From: Candidatus Aenigmatarchaeota archaeon
GTDB lineage: Archaea; Aenigmatarchaeota; Aenigmatarchaeia; PWEA01; JACQIF01
Assembly: GCA_016432325.1 (NCBI GenBank)
Contig: CP066684.1
Coordinates: forward strand, 704,001 to 768,000
Reading direction: 5' to 3'
Length of the DNA: 64,000 bases
Part shown: positions 17,658 to 54,935 of the stretch, piece by piece
How positions within the stretch are numbered: the stretch's first letter is position 1
Layout of the letters: each line of letters opens with the position of its first letter
Made by a program: the position numbers and the translations under genes
The notes under the pieces: generated by a model
Database searches by the model: none
What the model saw: the letters and a program-made list of their open reading frames with translations, nothing else
Told to the model about the DNA's origin: nothing

Positions 17658-17863
17658 TGGTAGCCCCGGTAGGATATTCATGAAACGCGCGGCGTTTCAT
17701 ACTTTCGGCTTCTTCGAATCCGAAAGTCTTCGAACCTACGTCAACGGTTAGCTTCGTCTGCTCACAGTTCTTTCGAACTCGCATCTTTAGAGACAAACTC
17801 CAAAGACCGCTATCCTTTTGTGGAACCGCTGGAATTCCGGTTTGGCCACTAGACGACGGGGCT
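17658..17863 (-). tRNA. tRNA-Gln(TTG) with three introns (17818-17843 D-loop, 17750-17799 at 37/38, 17675-17728 at 59/60)
   Basis: Removing the three BHB-bounded segments gives a 76-nt cloverleaf AGCCCCG...CGGGGCT-A-CCA. Confidence 0.9.
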
Positions 17864-17897
17864 CCGCGCAGACGTACGCGAGAACGCTTATTAACCT

Positions 17898-18197
17898 TTA
17901 CTTCGCCTCTCCCCACTTGATAATGTAGTGGACGAAGGCGAAGACTATAATCAGCGTTATCGCAAACTGAACGAAGACATTGGCGAATGCACCTATCTTT
18001 ATCGTCGCGTCGCCCACGTTCCAGGAGAACAGCCAAAGGCTCGACTTGTTCACGGTCGCGCCCAGAAGCGGCGAGAGCACCGCGTCGACAAAAGAGCGGA
18101 CAAGGTCGTTGACGGCCAGCGCTATCACAAAAGCGACAGCCGCGCCAACCACCTTGAATTCCTGCAGGAACTGCTTGAACTCGGAAAAGACGCCCAT
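17898..18197 (-). CDS. MscL-family mechanosensitive channel (short)
   Basis: EFKQFL, AVAFVIA, LV.SFV...LSPL, IGAF motifs. Confidence 0.8.
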   Translation of the reverse strand: MGVFSEFKQFLQEFKVVGAAVAFVIALAVNDLVRSFVDAVLSPLLGATVNKSSLWLFSWNVGDATIKIGAFANVFVQFAITLIIVFAFVHYIIKWGEAK

Positions 18198-18248
18198 AAC
18201 ACTGTAACGGGAAAGGCCTTTATTAACGTTGCGTTGAAATGTGAGTCC

Positions 18249-18310
18249 ATGAAAACATCGAAACTCGGTTTCGAATCTTCCAGAGGAAACAGGTGAATTT
18301 CGTGAAAATA
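18249..18310 (+). promoter_or_regulatory. hairpin leader/uORF duplicating the thrS start
   Basis: ATGAAAACA ... GTGAAAATA, period 53, TCGAAAC-TCG-GTTTCGA hairpin, SD AGGTGA. Confidence 0.7.
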
Positions 18311-20119
18311 CTGACGCTGCACTCGAACTCGCTGACCGTGACGCCTACAAAGAAGGCGATCAAGGACGCCGACGAGGAGCACGAGGCGCTCACGGCGAAA
18401 GAAGCTCTGGTCGTCTTCACGAGCGTCGAGAAGGAGGACGAGAAGAACAATGACGTCGTGGAGCGAACCGTAGAAGAGATACTCAAGGTCAACGAGCAGG
18501 TGCATGCGAAAGAAATCGTAATCTATCCGTACGTGCACCTGACGAACGCGCCGTCGTCGCCCGGTTTCGCCAAGGAGACTTTGAACAGACTAACCGCGGC
18601 TCTGGGAAAGCACGCAATCGTGAAGAAAGCGTCTTTCGGCTGGTACAAGGCGTTCACCATAGACGTGAAAGGCCACCCGCTGGCCGAACTGTCGCGCGAG
18701 ATAAAAGGCGAAGCGGAAAAGAAGCGCGCGCCGATAAAGAAGGAATATTTCATCATGACAGAGGACGGCAAGACGCACGACCCCGGAACGTACAAGTACA
18801 AGCAAGGCGAGGAGAACTTCAAGATTCTGGTGGATAAGGAAGCTCTGGGAAAAGAAGCGCCAGGAGGGAAAGAACCTGAATACATCAAGCATGTCAAACG
18901 TTTTGGAATAGACTGGGAGAGCATGTCAGACAGCGGCCACATGAGATACGGACCGCTGGGCGCGATGATACTTGAGCTCGCTTCGGACTACGCGAACGCC
19001 GTTGTGCGCTCCGTGGGGATTCCCGTGTACAACGTGCGCGGAACGAACATGTTCTCCCTGAACGAGCGCGCGATAGCAGAGCACGCGAAGCTCTTCGGAG
19101 ATCGTCTGTACGAGCTGGAGATGGAGAAAAAGAGGTTCGTCCTCAGATACGCCGCGTGCTTCCAGCAGTTCGCGATAATGAAGGACTGGATTATATCGTA
19201 CAAGAACATCCCTCTCGGTGCGTTCGAGGTCGCCGATTCATATCGTTTCGAACAGTCAGGCGAGACGCTGCTGTGCTTCCGCCTTCGAAAATTCCAGATG
19301 CCGGACATGCACGTGCTTACGTCAGACATGGAAGAGGCCAAGAAATGGACGCTCAGGATTCACGACAAGATATACGGGGAGATCGGCAAGCTTGGTCGCG
19401 ACTACTACTCGCTCTACAACCTCACATCGAAGGAATACTTCGAAAAGAACAAGGAGTTTTTCAAGGAGATGGTTCGCCGCGAGAAGAAGCCCGTGCTTCT
19501 GTGCTTCTATCCGCAGGGCGTCAACTATTACTGGATGTTGAATGTGGAGTATCACATCGTCGATTCGATGCAGAGGCCGCGCGAAATCGGGACGGTGCAG
19601 ATAGACGTCGGCAACGCCGAGCGCTTCGGCATCACATACACAGACGCGTCGGGCGCCGCGAAACATCCGATAATCCTGCACACGGCGATAATAGGCGGCC
19701 TTGAGAGATACATCTACACGATATTCGACACGGCGCTCCGCGAGAAGCATCCGACGTTGCCTCTGTGGCTGAGCCCGACGCAGGTTCGCCTGTGTCCGGT
19801 GAACGACACGTACGCGAAGAAGTGCGAGGCTCTGGCGGAGGAACTGGAGAAGAAAGGCGTGCGCGCGGACGTGGACGACCGCACGGAGTCCGTGCAGAAG
19901 AAGGTCCGCGACGCGGAGACGGATTGGATACCGCTCATCGTTGTCTACGGAGAGAAGGAAGACGCGGCGAAGAAGCTTGCCGTGCGCTTCAGGAAGTCTG
20001 GAGACGTCGAGAATATGTCTCTCGTCGAGCTGGCTTCGAGAATCAGGAAGGAGACATCCGAATATCCGTTCAGGCCGTTGACGATGCCGAAATTGGTTTC
20101 AAAGAGGCCGAAGTTCTAG
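18302..20119 (+). CDS. thrS: threonine--tRNA ligase (archaeal type, N-terminal editing domain)
   Basis: YPYVHL, FGWYKAF..VKGHPLAELSR, LRYAACF, YRFEQSGE, P.WLSPTQVR. Confidence 0.96.
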   Translation: MKILTLHSNSLTVTPTKKAIKDADEEHEALTAKEALVVFTSVEKEDEKNNDVVERTVEEILKVNEQVHAKEIVIYPYVHLTNAPSSPGFAKETLNRLTAALGKHAIVKKASFGWYKAFTIDVKGHPLAELSREIKGEAEKKRAPIKKEYFIMTEDGKTHDPGTYKYKQGEENFKILVDKEALGKEAPGGKEPEYIKHVKRFGIDWESMSDSGHMRYGPLGAMILELASDYANAVVRSVGIPVYNVRGTNMFSLNERAIAEHAKLFGDRLYELEMEKKRFVLRYAACFQQFAIMKDWIISYKNIPLGAFEVADSYRFEQSGETLLCFRLRKFQMPDMHVLTSDMEEAKKWTLRIHDKIYGEIGKLGRDYYSLYNLTSKEYFEKNKEFFKEMVRREKKPVLLCFYPQGVNYYWMLNVEYHIVDSMQRPREIGTVQIDVGNAERFGITYTDASGAAKHPIILHTAIIGGLERYIYTIFDTALREKHPTLPLWLSPTQVRLCPVNDTYAKKCEALAEELEKKGVRADVDDRTESVQKKVRDAETDWIPLIVVYGEKEDAAKKLAVRFRKSGDVENMSLVELASRIRKETSEYPFRPLTMPKLVSKRPKF

Positions 20120-20730
20120 TTCTTGCGAAGCTCGCGCAGTTTTAAAACCACATAACAGATTGCCGCGAGAACGAGCGCTATCAGAACAACATTCTCATAC
20201 GGCGCCAGCATCGTTCCTACGTCGTGCCAGCGTTCGCCGAGCTTGACTCCGACCCACAACAGGAGACCGTTCCAGATCGCCGCGCCTGCAGCTGTCGCAA
20301 CAACGAACGGCACGAAAGGCATGCGCGCAGTTCCTGCCGGTATAGAAATCACGTGGCGCACCGCGGGTATGAAGCGCGCGGCGAATATCGCAACAAAGCC
20401 GCGCCTTTTCGCGAAACGTTCTGTCCATTCCAGCTCGCGCCGCGAAATCAAAAACCACCTGCCGTACTTTAAAAGGAATGGCCTGCCTGCGCGGACTCCA
20501 ACATAATAGCTCAACGCGCTGCCGACTATACTGCCCAGAGTCGCGACTGCCAAGGCTGTCATAAAGTCGAACGTTCCCGAGAATACCACGAAGCCCGCGA
20601 AAGGCATAACGGCTTCGCTGGGGACAGGGACGGCCGTGCTCTCCAGAACCATCATTAAGAAGAGCCCCTGATAGCCCATCGTCGAGAGTATCGAAACAAC
20701 TGTCGCGGACAGAACGCTTAGGATGCCCAT
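20116..20730 (-). CDS. DedA family membrane protein
   Basis: ES..VPVPSE.VMPFAG, RFIPAVRH.ISIPAG. Confidence 0.92.
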   Translation of the reverse strand: MGILSVLSATVVSILSTMGYQGLFLMMVLESTAVPVPSEAVMPFAGFVVFSGTFDFMTALAVATLGSIVGSALSYYVGVRAGRPFLLKYGRWFLISRRELEWTERFAKRRGFVAIFAARFIPAVRHVISIPAGTARMPFVPFVVATAAGAAIWNGLLLWVGVKLGERWHDVGTMLAPYENVVLIALVLAAICYVVLKLRELRKN

Positions 20731-20781
20731 GGCCTCCGTGCGGCAAAAGCGTATATATCCTATTCGGTTCCTACCCGTCTC

Positions 20782-22074
20782 ATGGACTTCATGTCTGTGA
20801 GAGAGGCCATGGAACAGGAAGGCGGAACGGCCGCGCTGCGCGGCTGGTGCTCTACCGTGCGCACGCAGAAGACCACGGTTTTCATAATCCTGCGCGACGG
20901 AACCGGCCACATACAGGTCACGTTCAAAGAAAGCGACACGGACGCCAAGACGTTCAAGGCCGCGTCAGAACTTACGACCGAATCATCCGTAACGCTTACA
21001 GGCACGGTCGCAAAGGACGCACGCGCGCCCGGCGGCTTCGAGGTCAAGGGGCGCACGCTTGACGTTGTGCAACTGGCCGAACCATATCCCATCGCCCGCG
21101 ACAAGTCCCCGGAGTTCCTCATGGATCAGCGGCATTTGTGGATTCGTTCGCCGCAGATGACTGCGATACTGCGCGTGCGCTCGACGGTCTTCGGAGCCAT
21201 ACACGAATACTTCCGCTCGCAGAATTATTTTGAATTCCAGTCTCCTACGTTAACGAAGGCCGCTTGCGAGGGAGGTCCGACACTCTTCAAGGTCGACTAC
21301 TTCGGAGACGAAGTTTTCTTAACGCAGTCGTGGCAGCTCTATGCGGAAGCAGGGATTCACGCTCTTGAGAAGATTTACTGCATTGCTCCTTCGTTCCGCG
21401 CGGAGAAGTCGCGCACGACGCGCCATCTCACAGAGTACTGGCACGCGGAGTGCGAGGCAGCGTGGATGGACTTGGACGGACTGGCGCGCGTGGCGGAAGG
21501 ATTGATTTCGCACATCTGCGCACGCGTCGCGGAGAAGAACCCTGAAGACTTGCGCACTCTCGGACGCGACCCCAACGATTTGCTCAAGATAACGCCTCCG
21601 TTCCCACGCATCACGTACACCGAAGCGCTTGACATGCTGGCGAAGAAAGACGGCATCAAAATCAAGTGGGGCAAAGACCTCCGTACGGAAGAAGAGCGCG
21701 CGATTGCGCAGCATTTCGAACGTCCTGTCATAGTGACGCGCTATCCCAAGGAGATAATGGCCTTCTACAAGCCCGCGGATCCAAAGGATCCCAAGGTCGC
21801 TCTATGTTTCGACGTGCTCTGCCCTGAGCTCGGAACAGAAATAATCGGCGGCTCGCAGAGGGACGCGGACGTGAAGGCCATGATAAAGGCGTTGAAGAAA
21901 GAAGGCGCTGACCCGAAGTTCTATGACTGGTATTTTGCGACGCGACGTTACGGCGGCGTGCCTCACTCGGGCTTCGGCATGGGAGTGGAGCGCGTCATCC
22001 AGTGGATATGCAAGCTGGAGCACATCCGCGACACGATACCGTTCCCGAGAATGATGAATCGGTATTATCCTTGA
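20782..22074 (+). CDS. asnS: asparagine--tRNA ligase
   Basis: OB fold, EGG.TLF, LTQSWQLY, FRAEKSRTTRHLTEY, Y.WY...RRYG.VPHSGFGMGVER. Confidence 0.93.
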   Translation: MDFMSVREAMEQEGGTAALRGWCSTVRTQKTTVFIILRDGTGHIQVTFKESDTDAKTFKAASELTTESSVTLTGTVAKDARAPGGFEVKGRTLDVVQLAEPYPIARDKSPEFLMDQRHLWIRSPQMTAILRVRSTVFGAIHEYFRSQNYFEFQSPTLTKAACEGGPTLFKVDYFGDEVFLTQSWQLYAEAGIHALEKIYCIAPSFRAEKSRTTRHLTEYWHAECEAAWMDLDGLARVAEGLISHICARVAEKNPEDLRTLGRDPNDLLKITPPFPRITYTEALDMLAKKDGIKIKWGKDLRTEEERAIAQHFERPVIVTRYPKEIMAFYKPADPKDPKVALCFDVLCPELGTEIIGGSQRDADVKAMIKALKKEGADPKFYDWYFATRRYGGVPHSGFGMGVERVIQWICKLEHIRDTIPFPRMMNRYYP

Positions 22075-22690
22075 GGCTCATGACAATCCCTTCGACTTCT
22101 TTCATTACGTCTTCCGTCTTCGCGCGCTGTTGTAGCTCGTAAATCCCATTCAACACGCCTTCCACGACGAGTTGTTCTAGTGTAGCGCCTCCTCGACGCA
22201 TCCTCTTTGCGTGTTCCGCATAGCCCATTGCGAAACTGACGTCCAACAGTATGTCATAAAGGCTGTTTTTACCATCATTGAAACCGTTTACGTGCCGCGT
22301 CCATTTTATCCGTGCACAACACCGCAACCAACAAGACATTCTTTCGTTGTATGTTATGCATGCGCCTGTCGCCGCCTTTGCCACACGCGATATCTTATCC
22401 GGAACTGTTTTATCGCCCAATACAATATGATTTTCTGATAGGATATTTTCAATCGCATAGTCCCTCAACATCACGGCCTTCTGAAAGTTGTGCGGTGTCA
22501 GGAACATCACGTCCACCCATTTCCCCGTCTGAGCCTCGATTTTCCTTAGCACGTGGTGTGCTCCCTCCAGGGAGCCTACGTACACCACGTCAACATCTCC
22601 GGCATCCGCGCCCTTCCGCAGGTACGAGCCGTATATTATCACAAACTCGCCTTGCGGCACTTCCAAATCCAGTTCCCGAATCGCTAACAT
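21995..22690 (-). CDS. Pol-beta superfamily (MNT-like) nucleotidyltransferase with helical C-terminus
   Basis: IIYGSYLR....GDVDVV motif; 3' end overlaps asnS. Confidence 0.7.
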   Translation of the reverse strand: MLAIRELDLEVPQGEFVIIYGSYLRKGADAGDVDVVYVGSLEGAHHVLRKIEAQTGKWVDVMFLTPHNFQKAVMLRDYAIENILSENHIVLGDKTVPDKISRVAKAATGACITYNERMSCWLRCCARIKWTRHVNGFNDGKNSLYDILLDVSFAMGYAEHAKRMRRGGATLEQLVVEGVLNGIYELQQRAKTEDVMKEVEGIVMSLKDNTDSSFSGTVSCRGCAPACISTG

Positions 22691-22740
22691 TCTCTCGCCT
22701 CTTATTGGTGCGCAGGGTCTGCAGCCCCGGCGCGTTCGTT

Positions 22741-22920
22741 TTATCCTAGCCTGAATCCGTCCCTGTACGGGACGAGTTTCCCCGAGGGACTTACGTGCGA
22801 AATGTCCACGTGCGGATACGGGTGGCCTCTCGACGAATGGATGTCGCTTATGACGGCCACGCTGCCGAACTCATTTAGGTATCCAAGTCGCATTTCCCTC
22901 ATCGATGTCGGTACACTCAT
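22741..22920 (-). CDS. microprotein, 59 aa
   Basis: MSVPTSMREMRLGY...; GAGGTGA SD. Confidence 0.55.
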   Translation of the reverse strand: MSVPTSMREMRLGYLNEFGSVAVISDIHSSRGHPYPHVDISHVSPSGKLVPYRDGFRLG

Positions 22921-22951
22921 GTCTTCACCTCTTTGTTTTTTGTTCGTCGTT

Positions 22952-23095
22952 TCATCTCAGTCCACGCAACGCGTAGCTCTGTTCCAACGCGCTCATGTAC
23001 AGCCCGGGTGGCTGCATCAGGTCGCTGGGCAGCGTGCCGCCGTACGGTATCGCGCTGTAGTGGCCCGGTCCGATCACTGGTCCTTGTCCGCTCAT
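22952..23095 (-). CDS. microprotein, 47 aa, Gly/Pro-rich
   Basis: MSGQGPVIGPGHYSAIPYGG...; GGAGGTGA SD. Confidence 0.55.
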   Translation of the reverse strand: MSGQGPVIGPGHYSAIPYGGTLPSDLMQPPGLYMSALEQSYALRGLR

Positions 23096-23132
23096 CGTTT
23101 TCACCTCCGTTGAACTTTTGTCGCGATGACAC

Positions 23133-23243
23133 TCATCGTCCCTTGTACTGTTTCATGCCGGCCTGACAGTTGGGACAGCACGGGTCAAACCCCGGCGGTC
23201 CGGGACAGTACTCGGCCGACAATCTACTTGCGTACGTTTCCAT
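23133..23243 (-). CDS. microprotein, 36 aa, Cys-rich
   Basis: METYASRLSAEYCPGPPGFDPCCPNCQ...; GGAG SD right after the previous stop. Confidence 0.5.
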   Translation of the reverse strand: METYASRLSAEYCPGPPGFDPCCPNCQAGMKQYKGR

Positions 23244-23248
23244 CACTC

Positions 23249-23437
23249 CTACCGCCCTCCGACGAGTTTCGCGTGCCCTTCGTACGCCGGGTTTCCGGCC
23301 AGCACGTCTCCCATTCTCTGTATGTACGCCCTGTCCGTCGACCAGTCCCAGCTCTGCGCCCACTTCTTTCTCTTCGCCGGCGCGCCTGGAATGAAGTACG
23401 ACGGGCTTTCTTCATCCGTTCCCAATTCGTTCACCAT
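23249..23437 (-). CDS. microprotein, 62 aa
   Basis: MVNELGTDEESPSYFIPG...; GGAGGTG SD. Confidence 0.55.
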   Translation of the reverse strand: MVNELGTDEESPSYFIPGAPAKRKKWAQSWDWSTDRAYIQRMGDVLAGNPAYEGHAKLVGGR

Positions 23438-23643
23438 TTCCAAACACCTCCTTTGTTTTTTTGTCGCGTTCTTTGGTCCTGCGTTGTCCGCAGGGTTGGA
23501 ACCCAATTGATTAGCGCCACCATAAAAAACAGTCGTGTTACAGCTAACTGAAAGGATAAATAGTTGTACGGTTAACTAATTATAACGAAAAACGTTAACC
23601 CAAACGGGAGCGCTATATAAGGTTAATCTGTGGTGTATGAAGA

Positions 23644-24426
23644 ATGGACAAGGAGATAACACAGATTGTGTTTTTGGGTAATCCATACCATATGGAGAGG
23701 ATAAGATACCTTCTAAGAAAACGCATTCCGCAAAAGGTCTACTTCATAGAGGCCGAGGAGAACAATCACAGGGAGGAAGCCAAGGAGATGGCAGAAAAGA
23801 TGCGCTCCGAGCTTGAGGGGAATCTGCCGCGATGGGTGGTGGAAAAATCGGAGTTCACCGCTGTACCATTTTTTGACTTCACATCCGCTTTCATGAAACT
23901 AATCTCTATCATGCACAACGAGATTAGGCAAGACAGAGACGTTCTTGTCAACGCCCACGGCGGCAGCGTGATAGTCACTACAGCAGCCCTCTTGGCAGCT
24001 AACGCTACCGGAGCAAAGGTATGCTGGGTTGAGCCCGAGAGCTGGGGGTTTGTAGAAATGGGAGGCCACGTTTCACATATGGCCAAAGGAGCCAAGGGCA
24101 TCAAGGAGGTGGCGATTCCAATAAGCCTTGGAGTACCTGAGGGAGTGGACGCCAGCGTCCTCGGACATATCTACAGCAGAGGAGGAACCGTTAAGGGCAG
24201 ACTGTCCGCCATAACGGAGGACGTGGGCCTAGACAAGCTCGGCGCGAACGTGAAGAAGTCCAGCTCGGGCGTCGTGAAGCTCTCGAAGACCCTCGGCCGC
24301 CTCCGTGCGAAAGGCCTCATAGAGACGCGCAAGCTTGGCAGGAAATCCTTCGAAATCAAGCTCACCAAAGACAAGGGAGAGGTCGTGGGGAAGGTAGTGA
24401 GTCTGGTGTTAGAGAAAAGCATTTGA
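23644..24426 (+). CDS. DUF6293/CARF-like plus winged-HTH transcriptional regulator
   Basis: Rossmann-like N-domain with VN..GGS motif; C-terminal wHTH (L..L...GLIET.K.GR). Confidence 0.65.
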   Translation: MDKEITQIVFLGNPYHMERIRYLLRKRIPQKVYFIEAEENNHREEAKEMAEKMRSELEGNLPRWVVEKSEFTAVPFFDFTSAFMKLISIMHNEIRQDRDVLVNAHGGSVIVTTAALLAANATGAKVCWVEPESWGFVEMGGHVSHMAKGAKGIKEVAIPISLGVPEGVDASVLGHIYSRGGTVKGRLSAITEDVGLDKLGANVKKSSSGVVKLSKTLGRLRAKGLIETRKLGRKSFEIKLTKDKGEVVGKVVSLVLEKSI

Positions 24427-24430
24427 AGCT

Positions 24431-25843: not shown

Positions 25844-26026
25844 AATAAGTCGCAAGCAAAACGGCCCGTCTAACCCTTAAATACCTTCTCCTTCCAATAC
25901 TCGTCATGCGCGCAACACACGTACGAGAAAGTTCTGCATCCAGCCGCGCGAATAATACAGCCGTCTAGGGCCCATTTCTTCCCCAGACCACAGGCTTTAC
26001 GTCAGTGTCAACTCTATTAACCCAAT

Positions 26027-26135
26027 GCTCCGGTAGTTCAATTGGCAGAATGCTACGCTGTTAAACACTCCGCTCAAAGGGGCGGGTGCAAGCGGAGACG
26101 TAGAGACGGAGGTTCGAGTCCTCCCTGGAGCGCCA
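26027..26135 (+). tRNA. tRNA-Asn(GTT) with 34-nt intron at 37/38 (26064-26097)
   Basis: GCTCCGG/CTGGAGC acceptor stem, CTACG-CTGTTA^A-CGTAG, BHB motif, encoded CCA. Confidence 0.93.
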
Positions 26136-26146
26136 TTGTGATAACC

Positions 26147-36976: not shown

Positions 36977-37196
36977 TGGTGCTCCTGTCGGGATTTTCAT
37001 GGTGCCGGAAGGCGTAGTTTCTTTGCACCCGTGCTTTCTTTTTAAAGAAAGCCCGGTTTGAACCCGAGTCACAGCCTTTCTCTGCGTCGTTTTCTGCTGA
37101 AGCTCTTTCTTAAAGAGCTTCCTTGAGAGGGCCGGATCCTTACGATTTCTTCCTGCCCGCAGGACGGGAAGTTTGACCGGTCTAGACTACAGGAGC
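36977..37196 (-). tRNA. tRNA-Glu(CTC) with three introns (37141-37173 D-loop, 37078-37123 at 37/38, 36994-37056 at 59/60)
   Basis: Splicing gives a 78-nt cloverleaf GCTCCTG...CAGGAGC-A-CCA; central helices CGGT/ATCG, CTCT/AGAG, TTCA/TGAA. Confidence 0.9.
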
Positions 37197-39369: not shown

Positions 39370-39633
39370 TGGCGGGCCCGGAGGGACGTTCATGAAACGC
39401 CCGGCGTTTCTAACTTTCAGCTCCTTCGGAGCCAAAAGCTTTCGAACCCTCGACATCTTGGTGTCTTTTGCCGAGCGTAGGCATTCGAAGCCAAGCGCTC
39501 TATTTACCCCGCCTTGCGGGAGCGGATTTCATTCGGGAGTGCTCTCCCAATGTGCCGGAACTTTGTTCCGTGCATTCCCGCGGGTTTTTGCACGGACGTG
39601 TGCAAAAAGGCGCCCAAGCTGAGCCACGGACCC
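39370..39633 (-). tRNA. tRNA-Arg(TCG) with three introns (about 39504-39613 D-loop, 39463-39484 at 37/38, 39387-39440 at 59/60)
   Basis: Splicing gives a 78-nt cloverleaf GGGTCCG...CGGGCCC-G-CCA with anticodon arm CTTGG-CTTCGAA-CCAAG. Confidence 0.85.
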
Positions 39634-45903: not shown

Positions 45904-45979
45904 ATCACCACGCCAAGTATAGGGCATCCTATGTATTTATATAGTAATCGTGTCCAATATAGGACATCCGATACGACGT

Positions 45980-46087
45980 TACGGAGGTGTATGAAAGGGA
46001 GCGCCTTTCAAACCTGCACGGGAACGGCGGTTCCCGGCATGCCGGCGGCGAGGCTGCCGTGCATCCTCGCAAGCGCATACGGAGGTG
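45980..46087 (+). repeat. nested twin-hairpin inserts duplicating an SD site
   Basis: tacggaggtg at 45980 and 46078; inner TGCA-bounded unit 46015-46063. Confidence 0.75.
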
Positions 46088-46094
46088 AGTTCAA

Positions 46095-46343: not shown

Positions 46344-46345
46344 AA

Positions 46346-46912
46346 ATGAACGTAGAATACGGAAGCGAAGAGGCGCACAAGTTCGTTACGAACGTGGGAC
46401 TGGTCACCAGCGACGGGCCGCACGGGCCGAACGTGATGGCCTGCGAGTGGACGCACCACGTCTCGTACGAACCCGGTCTTATTGTTATAAACGTGGACGC
46501 CGCGGATGCGACGGCCGACAACATCCGCGCGACCGGCGAGTTCGGCGTCTCTCTCGCCGCCGAAGACCAGAGTGTCGTTTCGAGCGTCGCAGGCGGCTCC
46601 CACGGCCAGAGCGTCGACAAGATTGCTGTTCTGAAAGAAATGGGCGTCGAGTTCTACGCGGGAAAGAAAATAAAGGCGCCGATGATAAAAGGAGTCGCTC
46701 TGAGCGTGGAGTGCCGCGTCGTCGAAACGCGCGAACTGGGAGACCATGTGATGTTCGTGGGCGAAGCCGTTGACGTGCGGATGTCCGACAAACCGCCTCT
46801 CGTGTATCACGGCGGCAAGTACTGGAAGGTAGGGGAGCGCGTAGAGAAGCCGTCGCAGGACGTTCTGGAGAGCATAAAGAGGCTCGTTGAGAAGCACAGG
46901 AAAGGCGCGTAG
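46346..46912 (+). CDS. flavin reductase-like FMN-binding protein
   Basis: NVMA..W, T..NI..TGEF.VS, ECRV, GDH.MFVGE, PLVYH.G.Y. Confidence 0.9.
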   Translation: MNVEYGSEEAHKFVTNVGLVTSDGPHGPNVMACEWTHHVSYEPGLIVINVDAADATADNIRATGEFGVSLAAEDQSVVSSVAGGSHGQSVDKIAVLKEMGVEFYAGKKIKAPMIKGVALSVECRVVETRELGDHVMFVGEAVDVRMSDKPPLVYHGGKYWKVGERVEKPSQDVLESIKRLVEKHRKGA

Positions 46913-46942
46913 GTTAATATTATAAGCAATCAAATCCTGTGC

Positions 46943-48394: not shown

Positions 48395-48424
48395 GTTTAT
48401 ATCCTTTTCCGTCCATCTGAGGCC

Positions 48425-49543
48425 ATGGTCGATGTGGCGAGGATTCTCGAAGACTATAATAAAGAAGCCCTCACTGTCGCAACTCTCGGTTCTCACAGCG
48501 CGCTTGACATCGCGAAGGGAGCGCACGACGAAGGCTTTCAGACGCTTGTCGTCGGCCAAGACGGGCGGGAAGGGCCGTATCAGAAATATCGACATGACTG
48601 CGATGAGAACGATTTTTGCAGGGGCTGCATAAACCACGTCGAAGTTCTGGACAAGTTTACAGATATGGCAACACCAGAGTTTGTGGAAGGACTTCAGACG
48701 CGCAATGCCATCTTCGTTCCACATCGTTCTTTCTCCGTTTACGTTGCGCATAAGATAGGCTACGATGCCGTCATGGACATGGAGGTTCCGTTCTTCGGCA
48801 ACCGCGCGCTCTTGCAGGCGGAGGAGCGCGGACCCCTGGCGCCCAAGCTTAATCAGGATGCGCTTCTTGAACTTGCCGACATTCCGCGGCCGAGGACGTT
48901 CGCATCGCCGGACGAAATCGATATGACCGCCATCGTCAAGGTAAGCAAGGGCCACGGCGACCGCGCCTTCGAGCGTTCGTTCTTCTACGCGCGCAACAAA
49001 GAGGAGTTCTGGCAGAAGGGTAGCAAACTGGTCGGCGAAGGGAAGACGACGCGCGAGCAGCTAAAGGATGCGCACATGGAAGAGTACGTCCATTCGGTCC
49101 GCGAAGACGCGCTTGGAAACGTTCTGGAAGTTCCGGCGCCCAAGTACAACTTCAATTTCTTCAATTCGCCGTTCCACGGACTCGAGTTGCTCGGAATCGA
49201 CACGCGTGTCCAGGCTTCCAACGGCGAAGAGCTTGCGCATCACCCCGGCAGCCTGAAGGAGTCTTTGCTTTCGCAGGTCTTCGACCTAGGCGAGAGGTTC
49301 GTTAATGTTGCGAAAAAGCACGCCGCGCCCGGAGTCATCGGACCGTTCGCCCTGCAGGCCATTTTCAAGGGAGAGAAGGCGCTCGTGTACGACGCGAGCC
49401 TGCGAATGCCGGGCTCTCCTGACACGGAGTTCACTCCGTATTCAGGATATCTGTTTGGCAAACCTGTCAGCTTCGGCAGGCGCATAGCGATGGAGATAAG
49501 GGAGGCAGCCGGCAGGGACGAGCTTCTGGAAGTAGTTACTTGA
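48425..49543 (+). CDS. PurP-like ATP-grasp protein (DUF1246/DUF1297)
   Basis: LGSHSALDI..GA.DEG, VPHRSF..Y, FGNR, GPFALQ, GRRIA.EI. Confidence 0.85.
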   Translation: MVDVARILEDYNKEALTVATLGSHSALDIAKGAHDEGFQTLVVGQDGREGPYQKYRHDCDENDFCRGCINHVEVLDKFTDMATPEFVEGLQTRNAIFVPHRSFSVYVAHKIGYDAVMDMEVPFFGNRALLQAEERGPLAPKLNQDALLELADIPRPRTFASPDEIDMTAIVKVSKGHGDRAFERSFFYARNKEEFWQKGSKLVGEGKTTREQLKDAHMEEYVHSVREDALGNVLEVPAPKYNFNFFNSPFHGLELLGIDTRVQASNGEELAHHPGSLKESLLSQVFDLGERFVNVAKKHAAPGVIGPFALQAIFKGEKALVYDASLRMPGSPDTEFTPYSGYLFGKPVSFGRRIAMEIREAAGRDELLEVVT

Positions 49544-49594
49544 GTCTTGCCGACCAGAAAGTCTATTTAAAAGGGCCGGCTCATCAGGAAACAT

Positions 49595-49657
49595 ATGCGG
49601 GAGTAGCCAGAACTGCGGTTCTGAAACTCCCCCATTGAAGAACATGCGGGAGTAGCC
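49595..49657 (+). repeat. twin-hairpin insert duplicating the tRNA-Leu(GAG) 5' end
   Basis: atgcgggagtagcc at 49595 and 49644; CAGAAC-TGCG-GTTCTG hairpin; ACTCCC complement. Confidence 0.85.
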
Positions 49658-49867
49658 TAGACTGGTCAATGGCGCCGGCTTGAGGGGCCGGTTCCTTAGT
49701 GGATTCGCCGGTTCAAAGCTTTTTGCGCCAATGCGCATAAAGCTCAACGCGCAAAAGGCTTTAGCAGAAATACGCCTTCGTGCATCTTCGAACGATTGCG
49801 TTCGAAGTATTTCGGACGCAGTCCGAAAACGAAGGCGCGCGTTTCGAAATTCCGGCCTCCCGCACCA
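49646..49867 (+). tRNA. tRNA-Leu(GAG) with 133-nt intron at 59/60 (49718-49850)
   Basis: CCGGC-TTGAGGG-GCCGG anticodon arm, long variable arm, 89-nt mature form, encoded CCA. Confidence 0.92.
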
Positions 49868-49897
49868 CTATTTATTCGTTTACACGAAGCGTTGTCC

Positions 49898-50113
49898 ATG
49901 GCATGCGATACGTGTGGCTCGAAGGAAGATCATGACATCTGCATTCTAGGAGTAGAACGGTTGGACATGTACTACGATCCGGCAGGCATCGATGACATGG
50001 CGGAACCGCCGATCGACGAATACGCCGAGAGGAGATTGCGATTGTCTTCTGCCGGCAATCGATCCAACCAAAGAAAACTCGACGACTACGTTATTTCTTC
50101 CCTGCCTTCTTGA
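49898..50113 (+). CDS. small CxxC hypothetical protein
   Basis: MACDTCGSKEDHDIC...; TATA-like sequence after the tRNA. Confidence 0.45.
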   Translation: MACDTCGSKEDHDICILGVERLDMYYDPAGIDDMAEPPIDEYAERRLRLSSAGNRSNQRKLDDYVISSLPS

Positions 50114-51620
50114 CTTTCTTCACCACGTGCCCCTTGACTTCGTCGCCGAAGGAACGGTCTTCCTCGACCCGCTTTTCCGCGCGCTCTGGAACCATCTGCG
50201 GGAATAAAATGACTTCCTTTATGGAGCTCTGGTTGGTTAGCAGCATCACCAAGCGGTCTATACCGATGCCTACGCCGCCTGTGGGAGGCATGCCGCACTC
50301 CAGCGCGCGTATGAAATCTTCATCCATCTGGTGCGCTTCCGCGTGTCCGCGCTTGCGCATCGCGGCCTGCTGCTCGAAGCGCGAGCGCTGGTCTATCGGG
50401 TCGTTGAGCTCCGAAAACGCGTTGGCGAACTCGCGGCCCGTGATGAACAGCTCGAAACGCTCGGTGACGCCCGGTTCCCCGCGCTTCATCTTTGCGAGAG
50501 GCGACACCTCAACAGGATAGTCCGTTATGAACGTCGGGTTAACGATTTTTGGTTCGACGAACTCCTCGAAGAACGCTTCGATGAGCTCTCCGCGAGTGGC
50601 GCCCTTGTCAGTTTCGAGACCGTGTTTCTTCGCCAGCGCGCGCAGCTCTTCCAGCGTACGGCCGAAGGTTTCGATGCCGGCTCCGCGCACGGCGTCTTCC
50701 ATCGTGACGCGCCTCCACGGGGATTTGAGGTTTATCTTCTGGCCTTGATATTCGAATTCGAGCGTTCCGAGCGCCTTTATAGCAACGTGCTGGAATAGCC
50801 GCTCAACAAAGCCCATCATGTACTCGTAGTCCACGTACGCCTCGTAGAACTCCAGCATCGTGAACTCCGGGTTGTGCGTCGTATCGATGCTTTCGTTACG
50901 GAAGTCCTTGCTTATCTCGTAGACCTTTTCCATGCCGGCCACGACGAGACGTTTCAGGTACAGTTCGTCCGCGATGCGGAGATACATATCGACATCCAAA
51001 TCGTTGTGATGCGTTTTGAACGGGCGTGCCATCGCGCCGCCGTATATCGGCTGCAGTATCGGCGTCTCGACCTCGACGTAGCCGTGCTTGTCGAGAAACT
51101 CGCGCGCCGCCTGTATAATCTTGGTGCGCGCGGCGAATATCCTGCGCACGTCGGGGTTCATCACCATATCGAGATATCGCTGCCTGTAGCGCACCTCGAC
51201 GTCCTTCAAACCGAACCACGTCGACGGAATCGGATAGAGGCATTTGGAAAGCAGCACGAGTTCTTCGGCCGCGATGGAGACTTCTCCCTTGAGAGTCTTC
51301 ATGACCTTGCCTTTCGCGCCTATGTGGTCGCCGCGGTCAAGCAGACGGGAAATCCATGCGTACGCGTCGCCTATAGAGTCCGCGGACACGTAGACCTGAA
51401 TCTTGCCTGTTGCGTCTTGCAAATCGATAAACGTCAGCTTGCCGTGAGTGCGTATGCCGTAGATGCGGCCCGCCACGCTGGCGCGCGCGCCTTCGTGCTT
51501 CGCGTAGGCGTTCACTATGTCTCCCGCGGTGTGCGTGCGGTCGTATGCGTACGCAAAGGGCTCGATGCCCAGCTTCTTCAACTCTTCCAGCTTGCGCAGG
51601 CGTTCTGCACGTGTGTCCAT
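50091..51620 (-). CDS. lysS: lysine--tRNA ligase, class II
   Basis: RYRQRYLD, EVETP, GGA.ARPF.T, LRIA.ELYLKRL, FRNE.ID.THNPEFT, G.GIGIDRL. Confidence 0.96.
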   Translation of the reverse strand: MDTRAERLRKLEELKKLGIEPFAYAYDRTHTAGDIVNAYAKHEGARASVAGRIYGIRTHGKLTFIDLQDATGKIQVYVSADSIGDAYAWISRLLDRGDHIGAKGKVMKTLKGEVSIAAEELVLLSKCLYPIPSTWFGLKDVEVRYRQRYLDMVMNPDVRRIFAARTKIIQAAREFLDKHGYVEVETPILQPIYGGAMARPFKTHHNDLDVDMYLRIADELYLKRLVVAGMEKVYEISKDFRNESIDTTHNPEFTMLEFYEAYVDYEYMMGFVERLFQHVAIKALGTLEFEYQGQKINLKSPWRRVTMEDAVRGAGIETFGRTLEELRALAKKHGLETDKGATRGELIEAFFEEFVEPKIVNPTFITDYPVEVSPLAKMKRGEPGVTERFELFITGREFANAFSELNDPIDQRSRFEQQAAMRKRGHAEAHQMDEDFIRALECGMPPTGGVGIGIDRLVMLLTNQSSIKEVILFPQMVPERAEKRVEEDRSFGDEVKGHVVKKVKKAGKK

Positions 51621-51673
51621 CGACTTCACCCATGTACGATGGATAATTGAAACCGCAGTTTCATATTGTCCAT
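51614..51673 (-). promoter_or_regulatory. twin-hairpin leader/uORF duplicating the lysS start
   Basis: ATGGACA at 51673 and 51620, period 53; TGAAAC-TGCG-GTTTCA hairpin; TATCCATCG complement; SD GGTGA. Confidence 0.8.
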
Positions 51674-51777
51674 GAGAACCATTTGCACGCGAAGGTTATA
51701 AGAACGTTACTGAGAAGCCCGTTGGAACCATTCTTCTGAGACAATCAATACTCTAATCCATTCAAGACTCGCTTCCG

Positions 51778-52170
51778 CTACGCGCCCGATCGCCTTTTCT
51801 CCCAAGCGCGTATCGTCTCCGTTGCAGTATCCCGTGCTCTGATGCCATCTCCCAGCATCTTGTATGCGTCAAAAAGTATGGGCCCGCCGTACACCATGTC
51901 AACCTCATCGAGGCAATTCTGCACGCTTTCCACTATCATGGTAAGGTCCTCCCTTGGCACACGTATCCCGTATTCTGTGATTAGGCCGAGAACGTTCCAT
52001 GCCTCGTCGCGGTCGGCATCTTCTGCTTCGTGCGAGCCGCTTGCCAGATAATCCAGAACCTTTTCCCTGGCCGCGATCAGCTCTTCCTTTCCAAGGGCCT
52101 TATTCCGTTCTCGTATATCCAAGGCGCTGATTCGTTCTCGTTTATCCGGGTCACTGAATGAAGGCCTCAT
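51778..52170 (-). CDS. hypothetical protein
   Basis: 130 aa ORF with an upstream TTTAAATA box. Confidence 0.6.
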   Translation of the reverse strand: MRPSFSDPDKRERISALDIRERNKALGKEELIAAREKVLDYLASGSHEAEDADRDEAWNVLGLITEYGIRVPREDLTMIVESVQNCLDEVDMVYGGPILFDAYKMLGDGIRARDTATETIRAWEKRRSGA

Positions 52171-52216
52171 TGTACAACCGAGCCAATAACGCGCGAAAGC
52201 TATTTAAACCGATGTC

Positions 52217-53275
52217 TCACTTCTCGGCCATTATCTCCTTGACCTTCTTTTCCAGATCGGTTTTGTAGGTCTCGGAACGGTCCTCTTTCGAATAGAAGTC
52301 GGTCTTCGCTGCCATCGATATCTTCGCCGCCAGAGCACGCGCGACCTTGCCCCTTTTCTCCTGCGGCGCGTGCTGGATGTACGGATGCGTGAACAGCAGT
52401 CCATACTTGGGCGGTCGCGCGTCCCGTGCGCCCTGCTTGCGCGACTTCATGAAACGGAAGAGCGCCTTCTCCGCGCCGAGGAGCTGTATCGTGGACGCAG
52501 GCATCTTGGCCAAACGCTCGAGAGAGCCGGCGTGCTTGATCATCTTCGCCGCCAGTATCGGTCCCGCGACGGCCGTTGTGTTGGGCGCGACTCCGGGCAT
52601 CGCCCGTTCGAGATACATTTCGTAATCCCTTTTGAGGCCGAACAGGTCCACGGTTTCCGCGGCGTGCAGTCTTATCTGTTCGAGGTCGTCCTCCTCTATG
52701 TACGTGCCTATAGTGTCTTCCTCGCGTTTCGCCCCGTCGACTATCGCCTGCGCGTACTTCTCGTTGTCGCGAGTCTTGCGTTCCAGTTCCGGATGGTAGA
52801 TTCCGTACCACTCGTGCAGGCGTTCTGACATCACGTTCGCTATCTCTGTCAGGTCTTCGATGGAAGCGACGGCCTGCGCGACTATCTTATCCTTGTTCGG
52901 TTTCGCCTTCAGTTTTTCCTTTGTTTCCAGCCGCGCGAGCTCGGAGAGCAGCGCGTTCAGCTCCTGCTGGTCCTTGACAAACCCCGTTTCGACTGCAAGT
53001 TTGCGGACGTTGCTCGCCGCGTACTGCGCGCCCGGGTTGCCGGGCTCGCGCGTTATCTCAAAGCCTTCGTACTCGAAACCCAGGTCTGTGACGAGCGCCT
53101 TGTCCTTGGCTGTCGCGAGAACCTCGTCCAGTTCGGGCGTAGTGACTCCCTTGCGCAGGACGTGCAGCCGCTCCTTGATGGTCGCTGCGTCCCTTGGAAA
53201 CAGGGAGAAGGCTGCAACGTTGAAGTCCTTGTCCAGCGCGAAAACGCCCGCGTAGCAGGCTGTCACGTACAACAT
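52217..53275 (-). CDS. nop5: C/D box sRNP protein Nop5/Nop56
   Basis: RLHEWY..H.PEL, APN...VAG, LAKMPASTIQLLGAEKALF, PKYGL, RGK.ARALA.K. Confidence 0.93.
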   Translation of the reverse strand: MLYVTACYAGVFALDKDFNVAAFSLFPRDAATIKERLHVLRKGVTTPELDEVLATAKDKALVTDLGFEYEGFEITREPGNPGAQYAASNVRKLAVETGFVKDQQELNALLSELARLETKEKLKAKPNKDKIVAQAVASIEDLTEIANVMSERLHEWYGIYHPELERKTRDNEKYAQAIVDGAKREEDTIGTYIEEDDLEQIRLHAAETVDLFGLKRDYEMYLERAMPGVAPNTTAVAGPILAAKMIKHAGSLERLAKMPASTIQLLGAEKALFRFMKSRKQGARDARPPKYGLLFTHPYIQHAPQEKRGKVARALAAKISMAAKTDFYSKEDRSETYKTDLEKKVKEIMAEK

Positions 53276-53306
53276 ATCCGACCGCTCCTCTGAAAGGGTC
53301 GCTCGC

Positions 53307-53376
53307 GAAGGTTTAAATAGCTCATGCCGCAAGGGCGGGAGCTTTAAACCGCCCAGCGCCCGGAAGGTTTAAATAG
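53307..53376. repeat. twin-hairpin insert duplicating the TATA box between nop5 and rps17e
   Basis: gaaggtttaaatag at 53307 and 53363; ctttaaacc complement between. Confidence 0.8.
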
Positions 53377-53397
53377 GCAACGTCTAAACCTCCAGCT

Positions 53398-53691
53398 ATG
53401 GGAAGAAACGAAACCTTCGGTTTCAATCTTCCCCGTGAGTTGAGCTATATGGGAAGAATAAAGACCGCGCAGGTGAAGTCTCTCGGCAAGGATTTCGTCA
53501 AGGCCTATCCGGACAGGTTCACGACAGACTTCGACAAGAACAAGGAGATTCTGGCGACGGCCCAGATGAAGTCCAAGTGGCTCAAGAATCGTCTGGCCGG
53601 ATACACGGCGAAGCTCATGAAGCAGAAGGCCCGCGGCGTCATCATAACCGCTCCTCAGAAACAGGAAGAAGAGAAGAAGGAAGAGACATAG
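53398..53691 (+). CDS. rps17e: 30S ribosomal protein S17e (conserved start at 53449; 51-nt in-frame insert upstream)
   Basis: MGRIKT..VK, FTTDFDKNK, SK.LKNRLAGY; ATGGGAAGAA duplicated. Confidence 0.93.
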   Translation: MGRNETFGFNLPRELSYMGRIKTAQVKSLGKDFVKAYPDRFTTDFDKNKEILATAQMKSKWLKNRLAGYTAKLMKQKARGVIITAPQKQEEEKKEET

Positions 53692-53698
53692 TGGGATT

Positions 53699-54067
53699 TG
53701 GTGCGGAGGGCCGGACATTCTCCATGAATGCGCCAAGGCACATCGTGCCCGCAGGCGGATTTTTCATGAAAGTTTTTGCACGGAAGTGTGCAAAAAGTTT
53801 CGAACCGACGAACGCACTAAGCGACCAGATATCTCGAAGCGCATTTTTGATTTTCGCGTTTCGGATAAGCCTTCTTGAGTGTTGCCTCTCACAGAGTTTC
53901 CTCTCGAAACTCAAGGAACTGGCACCGTTGGTCTACGACTTCGTGTCGGAAGACGTACTTTCCGTGCATCTCGGAACGCGTGCGTTCCGAGTTTCCGAAT
54001 ACCGTTCGGAAATGCTTTTGCGCTCTGTGGCGCAAAAGCTTGCTTGGCCAGGCTTGGTTACCTCCGC
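53699..54067 (-). tRNA. tRNA-Leu(CAA) with four introns (53928-54043 D-loop, 53881-53918 at 30/31, 53831-53873 at 37/38, 53716-53798 at 59/60)
   Basis: Splicing gives an 89-nt Leu cloverleaf with CCAGA-CTCAAGA-TCTGG, long variable arm and A-CCA. Confidence 0.82.
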
Positions 54068-54127
54068 AAACTAAACCGACTTTCTTGCGGCAGGTACAAG
54101 AAGCTTTGCTTCTTGGTTACCTCCGCA
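54053..54127 (-). repeat. twin-hairpin insert duplicating the tRNA-Leu(CAA) 5' end
   Basis: 16-bp repeat TGCGGAGGTAACCAAG, period 59; AAGAAGC-AAA-GCTTCTT hairpin; TACCTGCCGCA complement. Confidence 0.85.
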
Positions 54128-54159
54128 TTGCTAATCGCTTCAGAAACAAAGGATATAAA

Positions 54160-54726
54160 TCACTTAATCCTCGCAAGCTCCTTTTTCAGGTTGGAAAGCT
54201 CGCTCTGCAGCTCGGAGACGTATTGCGTTACGCGCGCCCGCTCCTTGGAGCGCGGTATCTCTATCTCCGCCTCTTCGGGGCGCACGAACTCGCCGTCCAG
54301 AGAGATGAGGACGTCTGTGAGGTCCGTGACCGCCTGGCGCATCGCCTTCATGGTGCTGTCGCGGACGTGCTCCACTTCGTTCAAAAGGACCATTGTATCT
54401 GTCACGCTATGCAGGGACACCTTGATTTCCTCGAGCTTCTGGAGAATCTCCTTGTATCTGTCGATTTTGACGAACAGAGGCGCCATTTCTGACGCACGGA
54501 GAGTGCGTTCCACGGTCTCACCGACAGGCGGCCCGTACACCGGCATCTGAGGAGCTTGCGGAACAGGACCGGAGATGGGCTGGGGCGTCCATGAAGGTGC
54601 AGGAGGCAGGGCCATGGAAGGCGGAGCCATCGGAGGCAAGGGCGGCAGAGGAGGTCGCGCGGCGCCCACCCTGTCTTTTACGGCCTGTATGTCCGTGCGC
54701 TCCTCGCTCTTCTTCCAGAAAGCCAT
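54160..54726 (-). CDS. Pro-rich, coiled-coil hypothetical protein
   Basis: PLFVKIDRYKEIL followed by a coiled coil. Confidence 0.7.
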   Translation of the reverse strand: MAFWKKSEERTDIQAVKDRVGAARPPLPPLPPMAPPSMALPPAPSWTPQPISGPVPQAPQMPVYGPPVGETVERTLRASEMAPLFVKIDRYKEILQKLEEIKVSLHSVTDTMVLLNEVEHVRDSTMKAMRQAVTDLTDVLISLDGEFVRPEEAEIEIPRSKERARVTQYVSELQSELSNLKKELARIK

Positions 54727-54808
54727 TCGCATCCCTATAAGTGTAACAACTGCATAGTGTTCAGGGGAACCCATTTATAAACGTTTCAGCAGTTCTTATC
54801 GTTAACGC

Positions 54809-54935
54809 GCGCCGATGATCTAGTGGCATGATTCGAGCTTCCCAAGCTCGTTGTGCGGGTTCGATGACATCCTGTCCCATGGGGCGGGAGGTTTGAAACG
54901 CGAAGCGTTTCAGGAATATCCCGCTCGGCGCACCA
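54809..54935 (+). tRNA. tRNA-Gly(CCC) with 53-nt intron at 59/60 (54866-54918)
   Basis: GCGCCGA/TCGGCGC acceptor stem, CGAGC-TTCCCAA-GCTCG anticodon arm, encoded CCA. Confidence 0.92.

Follow-up and report, generated by a model that had tools for sequence, protein, structure and literature searches.

Related inserts at T-loop position 59/60 interrupt most tRNA genes of a Candidatus Aenigmatarchaeota genome and are very probably spliced, mobile tRNA introns

Introns at position 59/60 of the T-loop, tRNA genes with several introns and the transposition of introns between tRNA genes are all already known in archaea. For example, the tRNA-Cys gene of ARMAN-2 (Ca. Micrarchaeum) carries a 13-nucleotide (nt) 59/60 intron with a helix-bulge-helix (hBH) motif that is cut in vitro by the ε2 splicing enzyme, and tRNA-Pro(GGG) of the same organism has introns at both 53/54 and 59/60 (Fujishima et al. 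2011, PMC3239211). Intron transposition has been reported in the Thermoproteales (Fujishima 2010, as summarised in PMC4090602 and bioRxiv 10.64898/2026.10.13.758758), and heavily interrupted lineages of Asgard archaea contain about two intervening sequences per tRNA gene, up to five in one, with many insertions in the T-arm (bioRxiv 10.64898/2026.10.13.758758). Here we describe the tRNA genes in a 64,000-nt stretch (the window, G000:C1:704001-768000) of the single-contig genome of a Candidatus Aenigmatarchaeota archaeon (874,869 bp, 56% GC, about 90% complete). Of the seven tRNA genes that the window contains, six are interrupted at 59/60 by inserts which, together with their counterparts elsewhere in the genome, are very probably archaeal introns spliced by the tRNA endonuclease, copies of which spread among tRNA genes. 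No account of the Aenigmatarchaeota case was found in the literature searched. Coordinates are those of the window unless they are marked as genome positions.

Across the genome, 59/60 inserts were found in 32 genes by a custom scan and in tRNA-Ile(UAU) by eye, making 33 of about 45 tRNA genes (about 73%); two of the 33, both in Ser genes, probably lie at 58/59, where they fit better (GTTC/GAAC, 4/4 pairs). The T-loop inserts are 44-143 nt long, with a median of about 62 nt. Most tRNA genes also have D-loop and anticodon-loop introns (the D-loop boundaries are approximate), so that about 97 introns occupy about 45 genes, or about 2.1 per gene, with four in Leu-CAA, and nearly all genes are broken somewhere. 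Other T-arm interruptions include a 53/54 intron accompanying that at 59/60 in Ile-UAU, a 53/54 intron in Glu-UUC and a T-loop broken at another point in Thr-CGU. The similarity to ARMAN-2, likewise a member of the DPANN superphylum, comprises the 59/60 position itself, the combination of 53/54 and 59/60 introns in one gene, a splice motif in which the outer helix, 3' bulge and central helix are intact and the 5' site lacks a clean bulge, and an insertion before the catalytic His of the endonuclease EndA. On the other hand, the introns here have two or more hairpins and are longer than the one tested from ARMAN-2, one site is interrupted in about three quarters of the genes, and the enzyme is a single 201-amino-acid unit, unlike the ARMAN-2 ε2 enzyme. 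As in the Thermoproteales, there are several introns per gene and intron gain after species divergence; the load of about 2.1 per gene (our own count) compares with 1.54 in Pyrobaculum calidifontis (bioRxiv 10.64898/2026.10.13.758758). In contrast to the Thermoproteales case, the organism here belongs to DPANN and not to the Thermoproteota, one site dominates, the introns are long and structured, and EndA is a single unit with the L3 loop described below rather than an (αβ)2 enzyme with the Crenarchaea-specific loop. The Asgard lineages resemble this genome in their approximately two introns per gene, their many T-arm sites and the many introns missed by standard annotation, whereas their introns have a median of 22-23 nt, about a third of that found here, and almost no families common to different tRNA types, to which most T-loop introns belong here. 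The T-loop intron pattern is genome-wide and, as shown below, lineage-wide, and it is an extreme and structurally distinct form of the known mobile archaeal tRNA introns, with splicing itself being what we infer; what is new is the filling of one site in roughly three of every four tRNA genes, both in an Aenigmatarchaeota genome and in a distant, complete relative.

The custom scan searched for a 5-bp T stem followed by TTCRA plus one base, an insert of 0-300 nt, one further base, the 3' strand of the T stem, a 7/7 acceptor stem and an encoded CCA. ARAGORN and Rfam were rejected as a basis for the gene set, because they overlook nearly all of these tRNA genes. ARAGORN found no tRNA in the raw window and, in intron mode, made several wrong calls with kilobase-long "introns", including Asp-GUC miscalled as Pro; Rfam matched only Asn-GTT (26027-26132, with a canonical intron) in the window, apart from a partial hit that covers the first two thirds of the Gly gene. 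The T-loop interruptions explain why standard tools find almost no tRNAs here and only 0-15 in many near-complete relatives; across genomes of the class, the number of Rfam-detectable tRNAs ranges from 0 to 37, and many near-complete genomes have fewer than 15. Applied to the window, the scan returned exactly six genes with a 59/60 insert, of 54, 63, 54, 133, 83 and 53 nt, and no further tRNA gene emerged from two looser scans of the window. These are the genes and insert lengths that an earlier note, made from the letters of the window, had listed; the range given there, 17675-54918, begins with the first insert and ends with the last. The cut after TTCRAW and the NGAA-NN ending which the note proposed are present in all six: the inserts are preceded by TTCGAA, TTCAAA or TTCGAT and end in TGAA-TA (Gln), TGAA-AA (Glu), TGAA-CG (Arg), CGAA-AT (Leu-GAG), AGAA-TG (Leu-CAA) and GGAA-TA (Gly). 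Once the introns were removed in silico, the cloverleaf was restored and ARAGORN called 6/6 genes with the expected anticodons, compared with none before. An exon solver resolved a further 19 tRNA genes beyond these six.

Three of the window genes, all on the minus strand, have three introns each according to the scan and exon map. The tRNA-Gln(UUG) gene (17658..17863), with an encoded CCA, yields a spliced 76-nt product called by ARAGORN as tRNA-Gln(ttg). Its 59/60 intron (17675..17728, 54 nt) has two hairpins and pairs 4/4 between the two strands of the central helix (H/H') in the BHB (bulge-helix-bulge) register, and its unconstrained fold contains the T stem, a 3-nt 3' bulge, the H helix and two inner hairpins. 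The canonical 37/38 intron of this gene (17750..17799, 50 nt) pairs H CTTT with H' GAAG, 4/4, and its D-loop intron (17818..17843, about 26 nt, near 20/21 with approximate boundaries; best register GTGG/CCAC, 4/4) must be removed for the gene to be called by ARAGORN. The tRNA-Glu(CUC) gene (36977..37196), giving tRNA-Glu(ctc) once spliced, contains a D-loop intron at about 37141-37173, a 37/38 intron at 37078-37123 and a 63-nt 59/60 intron at 36994..37056 that starts with CCGGGCTTTC, pairs H/H' 4/4 and folds with the outer half of the BHB motif and two hairpins. In tRNA-Arg(UCG) (39370..39633; spliced product tRNA-Arg(tcg)) the D-loop intron lies at about 39504-39613 (110 nt), the 37/38 intron at 39463-39484 and the 54-nt 59/60 intron at 39387..39440 (H/H' 4/4). 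The D-loop introns of all three genes have 4/4 registers.

The tRNA-Leu(GAG) gene (49646..49867, plus strand) and the tRNA-Gly(CCC) gene (54809..54935, plus strand) were both found by the custom scan, have one intron each and give spliced products called as tRNA-Leu(gag) and tRNA-Gly(ccc). The Leu-GAG 59/60 intron (49718..49850) is a composite of 133 nt with H/H' 3/4, the first module of which is about 35/38 identical to the D-region intron of Arg-GCG, and the Gly 59/60 intron (54866..54918, 53 nt), assigned by alignment and fold, likewise pairs 3/4. The tRNA-Leu(CAA) gene (53699..54067, minus strand), parsed manually, gives tRNA-Leu(caa) after removal of its four introns, in the D-loop (53927-54042, 116 nt), at 30/31 (53881-53918, 38 nt; TGCC/GGCA, 4/4, read directly from the sequence), at 37/38 (53831-53873, 43 nt) and at 59/60 (53716..53798, 83 nt; H/H' 3/4), which leave the anticodon on an 8-nt micro-exon. 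The seventh tRNA gene, tRNA-Asn(GUU) (26027..26135, plus strand; Rfam tRNA 55 bits, and ARAGORN with the intron option), is interrupted only by a canonical intron of 34 nt (about 26064-26097), its T-loop being unbroken.

The BHB motif predicted at 59/60 pairs T54-R57 with intron positions -6 to -3, the last two intron bases and N60 forming the 3' bulge. In the 32 scanned genes this pairing has a mean of 3.09 out of 4, with at least three pairs in 27 genes and four in 12. Sliding both cut sites from -4 to +2 gave means of 0.5-2.0, and sliding the intron tetramer alone gave 1.4-2.25, so that the central helix between TTCR and the intron end, as had been suggested, shows up as a register-specific signal. 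In unconstrained folds of the T arm plus intron, the T stem formed in 32/32 cases, and two inner hairpins were present in 10 of the 13 folds with the full outer half of the motif. The inner side is a multi-branch junction, in agreement with the earlier description. These structures depart from the strict helix-bulge-helix-bulge-helix (hBHBh') motif, since the bases past the 5' site enter hairpin 1 and the opposite strand belongs to hairpin 2, giving a three-way junction; with the 5' site in this junction, the motif falls in the relaxed hBH/bulge-helix-loop (BHL) class, which is accepted as a BHB variant (PMC3239211, PMC5829648). The rule itself could be examined at the canonical position, where 19 introns at 37/38 pair at 3.63 out of 4 against 2.69 when introns are permuted among tRNAs, a value reached in 0/5000 permutations (P<2e-4), and where the covariation persists when only the two bases facing anticodon positions 34 and 35 are counted. 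This permutation check shows that the BHB rule is under selection in this genome.

The T-loop introns fall into families that cross tRNA identities. The Gln and Arg introns, for which homology had been claimed, align without gaps with 42/54 identical positions (78%), and the Gly intron and one Met gene belong to the same family, in which the second hairpin, GAAACGC-NNN-GCGTTTC, does not vary and compensating changes preserve the first. Within Gln/Arg/Gly the pair scores are 60, 31 and 29, against a shuffled-control maximum of 20, whereas those of Glu and both Leu introns with the other window introns are 10-24, at or near that maximum, and similarity to Gln/Arg/Gly is marginal. The six inserts had been described as related, two-hairpin introns; the relationship stands for Gln, Arg and Gly as one family, whereas Glu falls in a second (family A) and the two Leu introns in a third (composite family C), and the two-hairpin design is found in Gln, Arg, Gly and Glu but not in the two Leu introns, which are longer, multi-domain versions. 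Family A has nine members, eight of them, besides Glu, at 59/60 of other tRNAs. Genome-wide, 115 of the 496 pairs among 32 T-loop introns score above every shuffled control, and one similarity network joins 27 of the 32. T-loop introns also match D-loop and anticodon-loop introns of other tRNAs almost perfectly (35/35, 41/44 and 39/41 identical), and these near-identical copies at three loop positions are an unusually fresh record of intron gain and turnover in archaea.

In G001, a genome of the same genus, Gly-CCC is uninterrupted, Gly-UCC carries a family A intron where the genome studied here has family B, and Leu-GAG has an extra D-loop intron. The Leu-CAA exons of the two genomes are identical, their introns differing by hairpin replacement and indels; the G001 intron at 59/60 is of the same family with a different and longer first hairpin. 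In another family, three genomes have different inserts at the same place of Gly-CCC and one has none. The stretch is present in four groundwater DNA runs of one study, which may be its source. Among the contigs of these runs, those from relatives of the organism follow the Gly gene to 54865 and then continue straight into the 3' exon; in another contig, 49717 is followed directly by 49851 without the Leu-GAG intron, which is weak evidence because the short side of the junction is just 23 nt. The marks of transposition known from the Thermoproteales, close intron copies in different tRNAs and positions and intron content that differs between relatives (here Gly-CCC, Gly-UCC and Leu-GAG in G001), are both present, and the earlier proposal that introns spread between tRNA genes is well supported by the excess of similar pairs, the near-identical copies across positions and the differences between same-genus orthologs. 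Judged from sequence comparison, the introns move within short spans of evolutionary time, with sequences shared across tRNAs and loop sites and content that differs within a genus. The pattern extends beyond the genus, since a complete single-contig relative from another family (G019; 832,879 bp, 44% GC), scanned identically, has a 59/60 insert in 22 of 29 candidates (one of which looks spurious), with sequences unrelated to those in the genome of the window and a register signal of 2.95 against 0.6-1.95 at other registers.

The candidate splicing enzyme is encoded by one endA gene (genome G000:C1:849760-850362, minus strand; L001:1474-2079), whose 201-amino-acid product has one tRNA_int_endo_N and one tRNA_int_endo domain. 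Its best solved match is 1a79, the subunit of the M. jannaschii homotetramer, over the full length (E 8.5e-30), and a Pfam search of the genome together with phmmer against all open reading frames (ORFs) of at least 70 amino acids revealed no second EndA subunit. By gene architecture the enzyme, including its oligomeric state, is predicted to be of the α4 (M. jannaschii) type. The ε2 enzyme of ARMAN archaea, which the earlier note had invoked as precedent for a permissive endonuclease, is a three-unit polypeptide of about 390 amino acids, and only the middle unit of 4fz2 matches EndA well; the precedent does not hold for the architecture, although both enzymes have an insertion before the catalytic His. 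In EndA this insertion consists of six residues, is Lys-rich (RGVKLKKGPKSAKEH) and aligns without gaps with the loop of the N. equitans α subunit, also matching ARMAN-2. It has been named L3, found in DPANN α4 enzymes and linked to many disrupted tRNA genes (Kaneta et al. 2018, PMC5829648). Those DPANN enzymes have in common with EndA a single endA gene, one N-terminal plus one catalytic domain and the L3 loop, and a heavily disrupted tRNA set missed by standard tools, as seen here, was anticipated in that study; in its available parts the study has no intron catalogue for Aenigmatarchaeota. The L3 loop as the sole explanation of the intron load was ruled out, as it is found in 30/30 relatives whether 0 or 37 tRNAs are detectable in them. 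The closest EndA relatives are all from metagenome-assembled Candidatus Aenigmatarchaeota, most of them from groundwater. Of the catalytic Tyr-His-Lys triad, Tyr131 and His147 are present, whereas Lys156 of M. jannaschii and Lys334 of M. kandleri have Ala178 as their counterpart in the alignment; unlike in canonical α4 enzymes, Ala, Thr or Ser replaces the catalytic Lys across the whole group here. Genes for RtcB, RNase P RNA and a CCA-adding enzyme were all found in the genome. Members of the class differ in EndA architecture: a two-unit fused endA ORF of about 365-410 amino acids is found in one family, three genomes have two adjacent endA genes, and the remaining relatives have a single unit (relatives listed for variable architecture: G008, G012, G014, G016, G018, G020, G021; G024, G033, G039).

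In the splicing route that we propose, the T stem of the precursor would serve as the outer helix, and T54-T55-C56-(R57) would pair with intron positions -6 to -3 (YGAR) in a central helix of 3-4 bp, with the last two intron bases and N60 as the 3-nt 3' bulge. A58, N59 and the first intron base would stay unpaired in a three-way junction, which two intron hairpins would close; the second hairpin would abut the central helix, producing the relaxed hBH motif. The single EndA would cut both sites, RtcB would join the exons, and RNase P together with the remaining intron excisions would complete the tRNA. The 59/60 site is a geometric twin of the canonical 37/38 site: in both, a 5-bp stem carries a loop of 7 nt, and the cut would follow the sixth base of that loop. 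Since nearly all tRNAs share the exon half TTCRA, a single intron family with YGAA at its end would fit any tRNA unadapted, and this near-constant sequence together with the 37/38-like geometry may be why 59/60 is so heavily occupied.

Several observations weigh against such introns being spliced and mobile. The central helix reaches just three pairs in 15 genes of the 32 and falls short of three in another five, its fourth pair (R57 with -6) is weak and shows no covariation, and just 13/32 minimum-energy folds contain the outer half of the BHB motif (stem, central helix and 3-nt bulge). Furthermore, introns within a family are kin, so the 32 T-loop cases are not independent observations. The 5' cut site lies in a junction rather than in a 3-nt bulge, and single-unit α4 enzymes have been described as strict for hBHBh' (PMC3239211). 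EndA has Ala178 at the place of the catalytic Lys of solved archaeal catalytic units, with A, T or S there in 30/30 Aenigmatarchaeota relatives, and, the genome being about 90% complete, a partner subunit may have been missed, either in the missing 10% or as too diverged. The genome yielded no Y1 transposase, TnpB or reverse transcriptase that could account for the mobility. Finally, no RNA run was found to contain this DNA, and cleavage, ligation, the range of substrates that EndA accepts and the way in which copies move are predictions. Even so, the reading of the inserts as endonuclease-spliced introns at 59/60 that spread as copies among tRNA genes is, in our estimation, highly probable, and it makes this genome a test case for whether a single-unit EndA with the DPANN loop, and without the usual catalytic Lys, can cut relaxed three-way-junction substrates.

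One could suppose that the interrupted genes are dead and that functional tRNAs come from a host or from an unassembled gene set. DPANN archaea are episymbionts that depend on their hosts for many functions, and about a tenth of the genome may be missing. This explanation is nonetheless extremely unlikely, given that exons are identical or nearly so within the genus while introns diverge, that every gene spliced in silico gives a perfect cloverleaf with an encoded CCA and one gene per anticodon, that intron ends covary with the anticodon, that promoter-like TATA boxes precede the genes and that the complete single-contig genome G019 has the same pattern. It is also conceivable that the introns are kept because they are useful, either breaking up the conserved T-arm sequence that serves integrating elements as an attachment site, an idea attributed to Randau and Soll 2008 in PMC3239211, or yielding functional, stable circular RNAs. 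The very high occupancy of one site in two distant genomes and the strong conservation of the hairpins, the second being invariant in four tRNAs, would accord with such a role, which fits poorly with the fast sequence turnover and presence/absence differences within a genus, with the many unrelated families at the same site and with the lack of a C/D-box or other Rfam family match inside the introns; we regard it as quite improbable.

A closer alternative is that the inserts are selfish, non-autonomous hairpin elements which insert genome-wide as DNA and persist in tRNA genes only where splicing can remove them. It overlaps with the intron reading that we prefer and differs only in the source of the copies, "intron transposition" becoming a by-product. 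Hairpin modules such as GAAACGC-NNN-GCGTTTC do occur also in elements that duplicate tRNA 5' or 3' ends, as well as at three non-tRNA loci (a 117-nt in-frame insert behind a start codon, an intergenic leader and genome 420428-420466, all described below), and the 5' element of Leu-GAG is missing from the same-genus genome. Against it, 100 of the 106 BLAST matches of the T-loop introns fall within tRNA genes, which make up 1% of the genome, and the transposase, TnpB and reverse transcriptase genes mentioned above were not found. Moreover, no target-site duplication or flanking direct repeat was found at the T-loop introns, unlike at the terminal elements; where some intron ends resemble the T-loop, this is because TTCGAA is its own reverse complement. 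An origin primarily as selfish DNA is possible but rather doubtful. The preferred intron reading can itself be extended: the T-loop would be a universal landing pad on which two-hairpin introns ending in YGAA colonise any tRNA, the same modules would build the terminal elements and the inserts in mRNA leaders and at gene starts, with no recognisable transposase or reverse transcriptase, and an atypical, Lys-less single-unit EndA, perhaps using a Lys of the inserted loop, would handle the load. We put this forward tentatively and consider it unlikely as a whole; if true, it would provide a living example of the origin and spread of archaeal introns and a new solution for the endonuclease active site.

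Other elements accompany the ends of some tRNA genes. Upstream of Leu-GAG is a 49-nt element (49597..49645, plus strand) whose first bases repeat tRNA nt 1-12 exactly (49595-49608 = 49644-49657); behind this repeat come a hairpin and a segment complementary in sequence to the 5' strand of the acceptor stem. As noted, the element is missing from the G001 ortholog. The 59-nt element upstream of Leu-CAA (54068..54126, minus strand) begins with an exact copy of tRNA nt 1-15. Upstream elements of 45-59 nt occur at five tRNA genes, the two Leu genes of the window and those at genome positions 629801, 829672 and 25082, and consist of an exact copy of the first 9-15 nt of the tRNA, in some cases together with 1-12 leader bases, then a hairpin, the acceptor-5'-complementary stretch and a spacer, with a TATA-like box about 30 nt upstream of the upstream tRNA copy of the element; these elements showed no BHB register. 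The 5' elements of Leu-GAG and Leu-CAA were considered as BHB introns and rejected, as their direct repeats offer no central-helix register save a self-complementary TGCG artefact; they are for this reason taken as leader insertions. At the other end, trailers of about 43 nt or more stand behind about 11 of 45 tRNA genes, none of them in the window, at sites including genome 314620+, 515963-, 60969+, 700798+, 830062+, 641118+, 292773- and 29818-. In each trailer, a segment complementary to the 3' acceptor strand of the tRNA that it follows is combined with a hairpin, for which GAAACGC-NNN-GCGTTTC and GGAAAGC-GAA-GCTTTCC are frequent sequences, and with a perfect repeat of the final 9-10 nt of the tRNA, CCA included; together these parts mimic an acceptor-stem minihelix.

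The earlier note had remarked that the 53-54 nt size of the introns matches that of inserts in mRNA leaders; in a passing check of this remark, three elements related to the introns were found outside tRNA genes. One is a 117-nt insert of the Leu-CAA intron element family, lying in frame right behind the start codon of a pilin-like ORF (genome 546661-546800). It contains an internal ATG, from a CATGAAAA motif, and behind the insert comes a second, synonymously respelled copy of the KGISP codons. Copies of a family C intron module lie at genome 689037-689060, in an intergenic leader, and at 420428-420466; one of these two is directly behind a stop codon, and its ATG could start the next ORF.

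Among the remaining tRNA genes, a second, different tRNA-Asn(GUU) at genome 851596-851835 has an anticodon-stem intron of about 27 nt (about 30/31) and a 138-nt 59/60 intron, and a gene at genome 683123-683232 (minus strand; Rfam 45 bits) has an anticodon loop that is ambiguous around a 31-nt insert, the anticodon being UUU, UUA or CUA depending on the splice position. The 3' CCA is encoded in nearly all tRNA genes despite the presence of the CCA-adding enzyme gene (genome 56037-56387). The rRNA genes are also longer than their models, with 2178 nt for the 16S gene (genome 637095-639272) against 1478 model positions and 3204 nt for the 23S gene (genome 643786-646989) against 2987, and this excess length suggests rRNA introns or insertions.

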